The notes under the pieces were generated by a model. It did no database searches, had not been told where the DNA came from, and saw only the letters and a list, made by a program, of their open reading frames with translations. From NCBI GenBank assembly GCA_050736715.1, contig JBOHWK010000169.1, positions 73-64,072 of the forward strand: 64,000 nucleotides of DNA, in the 5' to 3' direction. The first letter of the stretch is position 1. The number at the start of each line of letters is the position of its first letter. This stretch comes from Candidatus Binataceae bacterium (GTDB lineage Bacteria; Desulfobacterota; Binatia; Binatales; Binataceae). A program made the position numbers and the translations under genes. This document shows positions 44,952 to 46,916 of the stretch, piece by piece.

Positions 44952-45926
44952 ATGGGTGACGTAATCGTTTTCGCGGAACATCAGGGGGGGCATTTCCCCA
45001 AGACCACGCTGGTTGCCGTCGAGGCTGGGATGGAACTGGCGAAGAAGCGGGGCGGCAAGGCGATAGTCGCGGTCCTCGGCGACGCGCCGGAGGCGGCGGC
45101 GGGCGAGATTGCGAAATACGGCGGAAGCAAAGTGGTCGCGCTGGCGCATCCCGCGCTTAAGAATTATCTCGCCGACGCCTACGCGCAGGCATTGGCCGCG
45201 CTGGTAAAGAAGGAAGGCGCCGAGTTCGCGCTGGCCACGGCGACGGCCGCCGGCAAAGACCTGTTTCCTCGCATCGCCGCGCGGCTTAACGCGCCGATGG
45301 CGTCGGAAATCACGGCGATCGATGACGGCGGCACGTTCGTCCGCCCGATGTACGCGGGCAACGCGATGGCGACCGTCGAGTTGGACGGCCCGATCAAGGT
45401 GCTGACGGTGCGCGGCACCGCGTTCGACGCGGCCAAGTCGGCCCCATCGCCGGCGCCGGTCGAAAAGCAGGCCGCCGAAATCGACGCCGGCGCGCTCAAG
45501 ATGGAATTCGTCTCGTTCAACGCCACCAAGAGCGATCGTCCACAGTTGACCGAGGCCCGCATCGTGGTGTCGGGCGGGCGCGGCCTCAAATCGGGGGAGA
45601 ACTTCAAGACCGTGCTGGAGCCGCTGGTCGATGAGCTGGGCGCGGCGATGGGCGCGTCGCGCGCCGCGGTGGACGCGGGCTTCGTCCCGAACGATTTACA
45701 GGTCGGACAGACCGGCAAGGTGGTCGCGCCCGAGCTATACATCGCGGTGGGAATCTCCGGCGCGATTCAGCATCTGGCCGGGATGAAGGATTCGAAGGTA
45801 ATCGTCGCGATCAACAAGGACGAGGAAGCCCCAATCTTCACCGTCGCCGACTACGGCCTGGTCGCCGATCTGTTCAAGGCGGTGCCGGAAATGGCGGAGG
45901 AAGTGAAAAAGCTCAAGCATTCATAG
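44952..45926 (+). CDS. etfA: electron transfer flavoprotein subunit alpha
   Basis: FAD-binding C-terminal domain ([33 protein letters not shown]); AAGGAAAG RBS. Confidence 0.9.
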   Translation: [324 protein letters not shown]

Positions 45927-45929
45927 GGG
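45825..45929 (+). repeat. direct repeat copy A: 3' end of etfA (functional copy)
   Basis: ~105 bp ~93% identical to 46812-46916; encodes [33 protein letters not shown]. Confidence 0.8.
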
Positions 45930-46244
45930 CAAAAAAAATGCCTCCTTGATGCCATGCCTCTCGCCACCCCAAGATAACCGGCCAACTCGACGTTCCGAGA
46001 CAATGTCACTGTCGATCGCATTGTGCCACACAGCAAGGGCGGAAAGACGGAACTGGCAAATGGCCGGTATTGCGCAAGATCGTGTAACATCGCTCGTGGC
46101 ACGCGGGACGATTTCGATCCTTCAGTGCAATGCTGCTTGCTCAAAGAGACCAACGCGGTAGCGAGTGGCCAAGCGGAAGTGCGTCCGGATTGAAGGAATA
46201 GCGCGGATATTGGAGAGAAGGCCCTCGCTGTGTGAAATTCGCCC

Positions 46245-46505
46245 GTGCCCACCATCGCACAAATCGGCGGCATCGGGATCATGATGTTTCAGCGGGATCG
46301 CAATCCGCCGCACTTTCATGCCTTTGGCGCCGATTTTGAGGCTAAATTTTCAATTGACCCCTGCGCCGCGATGGAATCGCGGGGCGGTTTGCGGGCAAGG
46401 GATATTGTGGCGATTAGGAACTGGGCGCGGAGCCACCGGAGCGCCCTGCTTGAAAACTGGTTGCGCGCCAGGCGGGGAGAGCGGATAGTGAGAATCGAGG
46501 ACTAA
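46245..46505 (+). CDS. DUF4160-domain protein
   Basis: GTG start; MPTIAQIGGIGIMMFQRDRNPPHFHAFGADFEAKFSI matches the DUF4160 N-terminal signature (MPTI...NDH.PPHFH). Confidence 0.7.
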   Translation: MPTIAQIGGIGIMMFQRDRNPPHFHAFGADFEAKFSIDPCAAMESRGGLRARDIVAIRNWARSHRSALLENWLRARRGERIVRIED

Positions 46506-46510
46506 AGGCC

Positions 46511-46789
46511 GTGTTCGCCGTTATTCGCAAAGCCATGGCGCGTGTCGATCTGGCGGTCGAAGTTACGTGGGAGAACGGCGAAGTATCGGTTATCTCCATG
46601 CGTGAGACGGTCGGCAAAGGCGGGGTCTTTGGGCCGCTCGCCGACCCCGGACTGTTTGGCAAGGTCGCGGTAGGCGAAGCCGGCCGCTGGCTCGAATGGC
46701 CGGGCGGGGCCGATATCTGTGCCGACGACCTCTGGTACCAAGCCCATCCTGGGGCAAAGATCGAAGAACTCGAACTGGCCAGAGAATAA
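46511..46789 (+). CDS. DUF2442-domain protein
   Basis: 92 aa, 5 nt after the DUF4160 gene; the DUF4160/DUF2442 pairing is a recurrent two-gene cassette. Confidence 0.6.
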   Translation: MFAVIRKAMARVDLAVEVTWENGEVSVISMRETVGKGGVFGPLADPGLFGKVAVGEAGRWLEWPGGADICADDLWYQAHPGAKIEELELARE

Positions 46790-46811
46790 GACCCTTCGCT
46801 TGCATCGTTGC

Positions 46812-46916
46812 CGAGAGGCGCCGATCTTCACCGTCGCCGACTGCGGCCTGGTCGCCGATCTATTCAAGGCAGTCCCGGAAATGGCGGAAGAAGTGAAAAA
46901 GCTCAAGCATTCGTAG
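46812..46916 (+). repeat. direct repeat copy B: displaced duplicate of the etfA 3' end
   Basis: Encodes [33 protein letters not shown] in frame with unrelated upstream sequence; 7 mostly synonymous mismatches versus copy A. Confidence 0.8.

Follow-up and report, generated by a model that had tools for sequence, protein, structure and literature searches.

The DNA analysed here is a stretch of 64,000 nt (hereafter the window) from a Candidatus Binataceae bacterium, positions 73 to 64,072 of contig JBOHWK010000169.1 (assembly GCA_050736715.1), and it contains an etfBA operon in which the 3' end of etfA is present twice. The two copies border an 885-nt insert on both sides: copy 1 completes an intact EtfA of 324 aa, while copy 2 is an orphan with no etfA body upstream of it. 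Three plus-strand features lie between the copies, namely the stump of an HNH nuclease gene, a DUF4160 gene and a DUF2442 gene. The features of the locus are as follows:

44952 to 45926, plus strand: etfA, intact, 324 aa, the last 102 nt being repeat copy 1 (Pfam ETF and ETF_alpha)
45825 to 45929, plus strand: repeat copy 1, the functional etfA 3' terminus, 33 codons, stop codon and 3 nt (repeat search, self-BLAST, alignment)
45933 to 46193, plus strand: dead 3' stump of a DUF262 (GmrSD_N)-HNH nuclease gene (sub-threshold Pfam HNH match, phmmer)
46245 to 46505, plus strand: DUF4160 gene, dhiT-like putative toxin, 86 aa, GTG start, intact (PF13711, E 2.9e-15)
46511 to 46789, plus strand: DUF2442 gene, dhiA-like putative antitoxin, 92 aa, intact (PF10387, E 2.3e-7)
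46815 to 46919, plus strand: repeat copy 2, a displaced, non-coding etfA terminus (repeat search, self-BLAST, alignment)
46945 to 46975, plus strand: intrinsic terminator, 9-bp stem with 8 G-C pairs, then TTTTTCTT (terminator scan)

The duplication was recovered by a repeat search of the window (45825-45929 and 46815-46919, 105 nt, 90% identity) and by self-BLAST (90.5% over 105 nt, E 6e-35), in agreement with an earlier note on this DNA that had reported the recurrence of a terminus of about 105 nt. Apart from two DUF1329 paralogues, it is the sole such repeat that self-BLAST finds in the 64 kb. The distance of about 890 bp given in that note is correct as the gap between the copies (885 nt), but not as the distance from start to start, which is 990 nt. 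Its count of seven differences has to be raised: the last 102 coding nucleotides of etfA (45825-45926) and their second copy (46815-46916) differ at nine positions, and a further difference lies directly past the stop codon. Eight of the nine are synonymous third-position changes; the other, at a second position, is the Tyr to Cys exchange already noted, and is found in copy 2. The homology ends approximately 3-8 nt 3' of the stop codon and starts at 45825/46815, or possibly 6 nt earlier (46810), provided that copy 2 is taken to have lost 1 nt. The longest exact blocks shared by the copies measure 23, 19 and 18 nt, which is compatible with a crossover core without being diagnostic of one. A 65-aa open reading frame (ORF; 46719-46916) that crosses the dhiA-side junction into copy 2 is a by-product of the arrangement.

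The divergence between the two copies is almost exclusively synonymous (pS 0.348, pN 0.013), which indicates that, until they were joined, each was part of a separate working etfA gene. We simulated the alternative of unconstrained change by placing nine random substitutions on copy 1 with the observed transition/transversion mix; an outcome free of stop codons and with one amino-acid change at the most came up in only 0.0235% of 200,000 runs (P = 2.4e-4). The two termini are etfA alleles that diverged under purifying selection in different lineages, and this substitution pattern upholds the earlier proposal that a second, foreign etfA end was brought in, as opposed to being duplicated locally. 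At the codon affected by the Tyr to Cys exchange, nine of ten relatives have Tyr and the tenth has Phe, and at most about one substitution, this one, looks like decay after displacement. The copies match each other at 93 of 102 positions, whereas neither matches any species representative at more than 88 of 102; the closest metagenome relative, locus L082, scores 94/102 and 91/102 against the two copies. The mutual match and the L082 scores together place the source of both alleles within the Binataceae clade. The proposal that the displaced original lies at the far border fits both the terminator behind copy 2 and the Tyr to Cys exchange in that copy, although a site-by-site comparison with relatives favoured neither copy as the native one.

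The composition of the insert is mildly foreign. Its lower GC content, pointed out previously, is real and modest (0.588 vs 0.627 for the whole window), and third-position GC (GC3) is 0.60 in the stump and 0.68-0.69 in the DUF4160 and DUF2442 genes (0.69 for DUF4160), compared with 0.78-0.84 in the flanking genes. The sole strong terminator downstream of etfA follows copy 2 and not copy 1; a small hairpin behind copy 1 lacks a U tract, and its fold does not surpass that of shuffled sequences. With the terminator present only behind copy 2, etfBA transcription now probably crosses the toxin-antitoxin pair and reads through to the old terminator. A search against Rfam gave only sub-threshold matches that overlap the terminator.

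The identities proposed earlier for the two small genes of the insert are confirmed by Pfam scores above the curated cut-offs for both DUF4160 and DUF2442. The DUF2442 gene begins 5 nt past the DUF4160 stop codon on the same strand. Homologues of the DUF4160 protein are 86 aa long and 67-80% identical at 98-100% coverage, and the DUF2442 protein is 67-68% identical, at full length, to the partners of DUF4160 at loci L084-L087, where the pairing is conserved. Both genes look intact in view of these full-length matches at 67-80% identity. The order, DUF4160 followed by DUF2442, is that of dhiTA, a toxin-antitoxin system of type II described experimentally in Dickeya dadantii (PMC8198452), which bears out the description of the pair as toxin-antitoxin-like; we accordingly regard it as a putative dhiTA-type toxin-antitoxin module. 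The combination is widespread (PMC12065111), and a Thermus DUF4160/DUF2442 pair of 87 and 92 aa increases plasmid persistence (PMC12724237). In the public annotation (GenBank protein P0121) the DUF4160 protein starts at an internal ATG and has 74 aa; the GTG at 46245 is the favoured start because the homologues have 86 aa and the family N-terminus reads MPTI. Exact-protein look-ups of EtfA, DUF4160, DUF2442 and P0121 returned no record.

The closest DUF4160/DUF2442 pairs (L084-L088) lie in unrelated contexts, and the DNA similarity of the window to other dhiTA loci is limited to the two ORFs (46246-46788). None of L084-L088 has an HNH neighbour, an integrase or flanking repeats, so that the suggested attachment of the cassette to other gene termini elsewhere is not seen there, and the gene-end repeat is not a property of the cassette itself. 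At L088 a homologous pair is broken by a 1.6-kb insertion without a long ORF of clear identity (6184-7796), an example of cassette decay.

The insert had been described as encoding only these two proteins; it also holds the stump of a nuclease gene at about 45933-46193. The frame right after the etfA stop codon reads GQKKCLLDAMPLATPR, stop, PANSTFRDNVTVDRIVPHSKGGKTELANGRYCARSCNIARGTRDDFDP..., and the in-frame stop of the stump lies at 45975-45977. The Pfam HNH match (E 5e-4) falls just under the curated cut-off, and a word-index search gave no match. Exhaustive phmmer placed the stump with 25 relatives, all of them matching by the C-termini of longer proteins only. The best full-length relative, P0138 (482 aa), combines GmrSD_N (DUF262) with HNH, and the stump is 64% identical to its residues 418-472 over 55 aa. 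Approximately the last 60-80 of some 480 residues are left, with about 400 N-terminal residues gone, and the catalytic Asp-His is replaced by Asp-Arg. The HNH stump is thus dead, and not a working gene: a GmrSD-like enzyme has an N-terminal DUF262/ParB-like domain and an intact nuclease motif, whereas here there is a C-terminal HNH remnant in which the motif has changed from DH to DR and a stop intervenes. A weak alignment suggests that the KCxL motif is situated directly past the etfA stop codon and that the stump homology begins no more than about 10 nt after that codon. Because the stump starts so close to etfA and inside the HNH domain, the left junction is likely to be illegitimate or the result of a deletion, and would leave no room for att arms.

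P0138 also matches two DUF262-containing PADLOC models, NsnA and PD-T4-2_A; no PADLOC model matches the DUF4160, DUF2442 or stump sequences. A Menshen system was considered and rejected, since only P0138 resembles NsnA, via DUF262, and the insert has no ORF for an NsnB-like ABC ATPase.

We compared the locus with approximately 27 Binatia etfA loci, comprising 17 species representatives and ten loci from the closest EtfA clusters. All have a single terminus, with no HNH, DUF4160 or DUF2442 gene nearby, which agrees with the view of the insert as foreign cargo; the situation that the earlier note had named as refuting its reading, namely the same arrangement with identical repeats in all relatives, is not seen. 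A self-search of 83 etfA loci, flanks included, revealed a second etfA terminus in none of them. The window EtfA aligns over its full length with 324-aa relatives at up to 92% identity, the nearest genome representatives being Binataceae metagenome-assembled genomes (MAGs) at 86-89%, and EtfB is 67-93% identical to that of Binatia relatives, with iclR upstream and the order conserved. The genes that flank the features listed above are:

44052 to 44819, plus strand: etfB, first gene of the etfBA operon (Pfam ETF, E 1.1e-44)
47104 to 48318, plus strand: macA-like membrane fusion protein gene, the downstream flank (Pfam HlyD_D23 and HlyD_3)
48328 to 50463: macB-like ABC gene, following the macA-like gene

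In the clade, the gene order runs aldo-keto reductase, glyoxalase, methyltransferase, iclR, etfB, etfA, alpha/beta hydrolase, ABC ATPase and CoA transferase. The window retains the upstream part of this order, and the downstream genes (hydrolase, ABC ATPase, CoA transferase) occur nowhere in its 64 kb. The etfA stop codon is also a synteny breakpoint in the window lineage. It had been proposed that related genomes would show the empty site as etfA followed directly by macA. However, a scan of the genome contigs together with contig inspection found no macA downstream of etfA among the loci with the closest EtfA, where the neighbour is the alpha/beta hydrolase gene. A metagenome scan for the window macA gave a best relative of 65% identity, with etfA nearby in none of 80 macA loci. 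With no related locus in which macA follows etfA, no true empty site was found.

The spacer between etfA and the hydrolase gene measures 28-80 nt and is free of cargo at L001, L023 and L170-L175. At two other loci the same spacer has gained a toxin-antitoxin pair, recognised by eye from the translations: a Phd/VapC-like pair at L002 (about 7379-8044), and an RHH antitoxin with a degraded GNAT toxin at L081 (6057-6844). When L081 is compared with the empty site of L023, homology stops 5 nt past the etfA stop codon and resumes just before the hydrolase start, with no duplication. The few bases past the etfA stop codon thus appear to be a recurrent landing place for toxin-antitoxin pairs in the clade, reached without duplication of the gene end.

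The statement that no integrase remains was borne out in the regions searched. The 885 nt between the repeats consist of the stump and the two small genes only, with no recombinase, and a scan of eleven large ORFs in the 39.8-64 kb region detected no integrase or recombinase domain. There is no tRNA gene in the window. Neither the etfA-tail pattern nor the DUF4160 protein matched any viral contig, and etfA and its synonyms do not occur in the accessible portion of the TIGER survey supplements. Recurrence of the target, as expected of an integrase-mediated island, was found neither among the 83 etfA loci nor in viral contigs. We also rejected a transposon, insertion sequence or miniature inverted-repeat element, as the borders have no inverted repeats, there is no transposase ORF, and the repeats on either side are 105-nt stretches taken from a gene.

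For the arrival of the insert, the explanation we favour, tentatively and at slightly short of an even chance, is a recombination scar in which a foreign etfA terminus was placed beside accessory DNA through homology in the etfA end, without a dedicated integrase. The conserved end would serve as the homology in either of two ways: by one crossover, of the Campbell type or through homology-facilitated illegitimate recombination, in which the chromosome met DNA of a related Binataceae that had an etfA end plus cargo, or by block replacement with its left end inside etfA. Since toxin-antitoxin pairs appear to have landed repeatedly just past the etfA stop codon, DNA of this kind would be expected to exist in the population. 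A later deletion would trim the cargo, with the addictive toxin-antitoxin pair surviving. The topology of a gene with a replacement end, cargo and a displaced end is accounted for, because a single reciprocal crossover in the etfA end yields it. Recombination without an integrase is favoured because no recombinase lies between the repeats or among the scanned ORFs, the insert is only 885 nt long and has no room for arm sites, no other island at an etfA end was found, and relatives have gained cargo without a duplication. Several observations nevertheless weigh against this explanation. At 23 nt, the longest identical block is barely sufficient for recombination of the RecA type, and when etfA was examined for a mosaic breakpoint by maximum chi-square, the result did not reach significance (p 0.08-0.30). 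The expected donor arrangement, etfA followed by an HNH gene and dhiTA, is absent from all database loci searched, and the recipient arrangement of etfA followed by the terminator and macA was likewise not found. Furthermore, a site-specific integrase with a gene fragment in its attP classically leaves just this anatomy, and the integrase may later have been lost. A decayed integrative element of this type, targeting the etfA 3' end, is a serious rival, if on balance unlikely. Its attP would have brought the replacement terminus, leaving copy 1 as the attL that restores the gene and copy 2 as the attR with the displaced original and its terminator; internal deletions would then have taken the integrase and most of the cargo, and left the HNH stump and the self-stabilising toxin-antitoxin pair. 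The anatomy is that of e14 at icd, where the prophage lies between icd and the C-terminal pseudogene icdC (PMC13626634), and it fits the general rule by which integrative elements spare a coding gene through a gene fragment in attP, the repeat blocks being as long as about 250 bp (PMC7192596). An end of the repeat a few nucleotides past the stop codon, cargo of the defence and toxin-antitoxin type, mostly synonymous differences between the copies, and a copy 2 in which the terminator is retained and a Tyr has been exchanged, damagingly, for Cys are all in keeping with this origin. On the other hand, the integrase-type targeting advanced in the earlier note had been drawn from the anatomy alone, and finds neither an integrase in the regions scanned nor arm sites. 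The insert is far below normal island size. A deletion would have to remove int and all arms yet spare both repeats, with the cargo beginning inside a gene no more than about 10 nt past the stop codon. No second terminus or other etfA-end island occurs among the 83 etfA loci (about 27 of them from Binatia), the TIGER supplements offer no etfA entry in the portion available, and relatives acquired toxin-antitoxin pairs at the same spot without any duplication.

It is also conceivable, though quite unlikely, that copy 2 was left over from a complete second etfBA operon, or else from a larger block that was acquired and comprised the etfA end, the terminator, macAB and onward. Such a block would have been trimmed by deletion, or joined illegitimately, just behind a toxin-antitoxin pair that already resided past etfA, so that copy 1 would be native and the downstream block the newcomer. 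Everything downstream of etfA in the window departs from the clade order, and the macAB flank is syntenic with no relative, which implies that a larger rearrangement ends at this very point; relatives do have toxin-antitoxin pairs directly past etfA, and the copies did diverge as functional genes. Against this, no genome was found in which etfA adjoins macA, the GC3 of macAB and the genes downstream is host-like and not obviously foreign, and chance or partial homology would have to be invoked for a block boundary inside the same gene. It is highly improbable that the etfA end was duplicated locally in tandem and then decayed, or that the structure is a chimera of metagenome assembly. The window is a single MAG contig from one sample, which leaves some scope for an artefact. 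However, decay after duplication predicts mostly non-synonymous changes and indels, and with eight of nine differences synonymous (P about 2e-4) local duplication is effectively refuted and was rejected. For a chimera, no exact shared block exceeds 23 nt, which by our reasoning is below the k-mers usually employed by assemblers, and it would still presuppose an actual molecule in which an etfA end comes after dhiA. The recombination scar made through etfA-end homology could be carried further, to a view which we consider doubtful and rather speculative: small defence and toxin-antitoxin cargo in Binataceae may move in a recombinase-free manner, with the last 100 nt or so of etfA as a portable homology arm. 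Through one crossover in the arm, the cargo would enter with etfA still intact, and the old terminus would stay behind. If true, integration by an attP gene fragment would thereby be mimicked without any integrase, and the recurrent cargo at the etfA stop codon would have an explanation.

Further observations were made in the surroundings of the locus. A parD/parE pair (Pfam ParD_antitoxin and ParE_toxin) occupies 43233-43822, between iclR and etfB. It sits upstream of a short motif (43949-43979) kept in the iclR-etfB spacers of relatives, a motif of the etfB promoter region; the pair is missing from L001, L002, L169 and L171, and has no duplication around it. The etfB-etfA spacer (44820-44951) is 132 nt long, against 16-93 nt in relatives, and holds G/C-rich hairpin-like repeats (CCCCCTTCTCCTTTAGGGAAGGGGG, TTCCCCTCTCCTAAAGGGAG), a motif unique in the window; its fold is no better than that of shuffled sequences (z -0.28). 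Downstream of macAB lie the tandem DUF1329/LolA-like paralogues (50536-51906 and 52026-53393, 72.6% DNA identity). An ORF of 449 aa at 55725-57074 has an apparent Fic-type motif, recognised by eye (HPFVDGNGRTARAL), fails the GC3 filter of at least 0.68 that neighbouring genes pass, and lies in a 1.9-kb stretch without a high-GC3 ORF next to the 5' end of glmS; this ORF, too, probably belongs to inserted foreign DNA. Self-BLAST also revealed a near-perfect palindrome of 36 nt at 12945-12980 (89% self-complementary).

As a small scar present in a single copy, the locus is of use mainly because it marks gene flow and a hot spot for cargo next to etfBA in the clade. Were an integrase responsible, etfA would join the protein-coding genes that serve as attachment targets, and elements of this kind would be indicated for the first time in uncultured Binatia. 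Were the join driven by homology, a conserved gene end would act as a handle that moves toxin-antitoxin and defence cargo between related genomes, and an addictive pair could outlast the rest of a decayed insert.

When set beside known systems, the insert adds one more case to a known class of scars, its cargo being a known toxin-antitoxin family and a dead gene of the restriction type, and no new mechanism is required. The closest parallel is e14 or phage 21 at E. coli icd, where foreign DNA likewise lies between a gene with a replacement 3' end and a displaced C-terminal pseudogene fragment, with a repeat block of about 100-200 nt and mostly synonymous differences between the copies; a protein-coding target, presented in the earlier note as a departure, is therefore not new (PMC13626634; PMC7192596). 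In contrast to e14, which is about 15 kb long, encodes its own integrase and excises, the window insert has 885 nt and no recombinase, and its cargo abuts the stop codon from inside a broken gene. The stump recalls the single-gene type IV restriction enzymes of the GmrSD type through its relative P0138, a GmrSD_N protein with a C-terminal HNH domain, while differing from them in that only the last 60-80 residues are left, with an internal stop and the catalytic His lost. Classical GmrSD has a DUF1524 nuclease domain. The small-gene pair resembles dhiTA of Dickeya dadantii 3937 in its domains, their order, the small sizes (86 and 92 aa) and the near-abutting genes, with homology at the level of Pfam domains only. 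Finally, the pairs in the etfA spacer of L002 and L081, and parDE in the window, resemble the toxin-antitoxin modules that lodge in intergenic hot spots by core genes and are swapped through homology on their flanks; unlike the hot-spot insertions of its relatives, the insertion behind etfA in the window has the end of the neighbouring gene duplicated.

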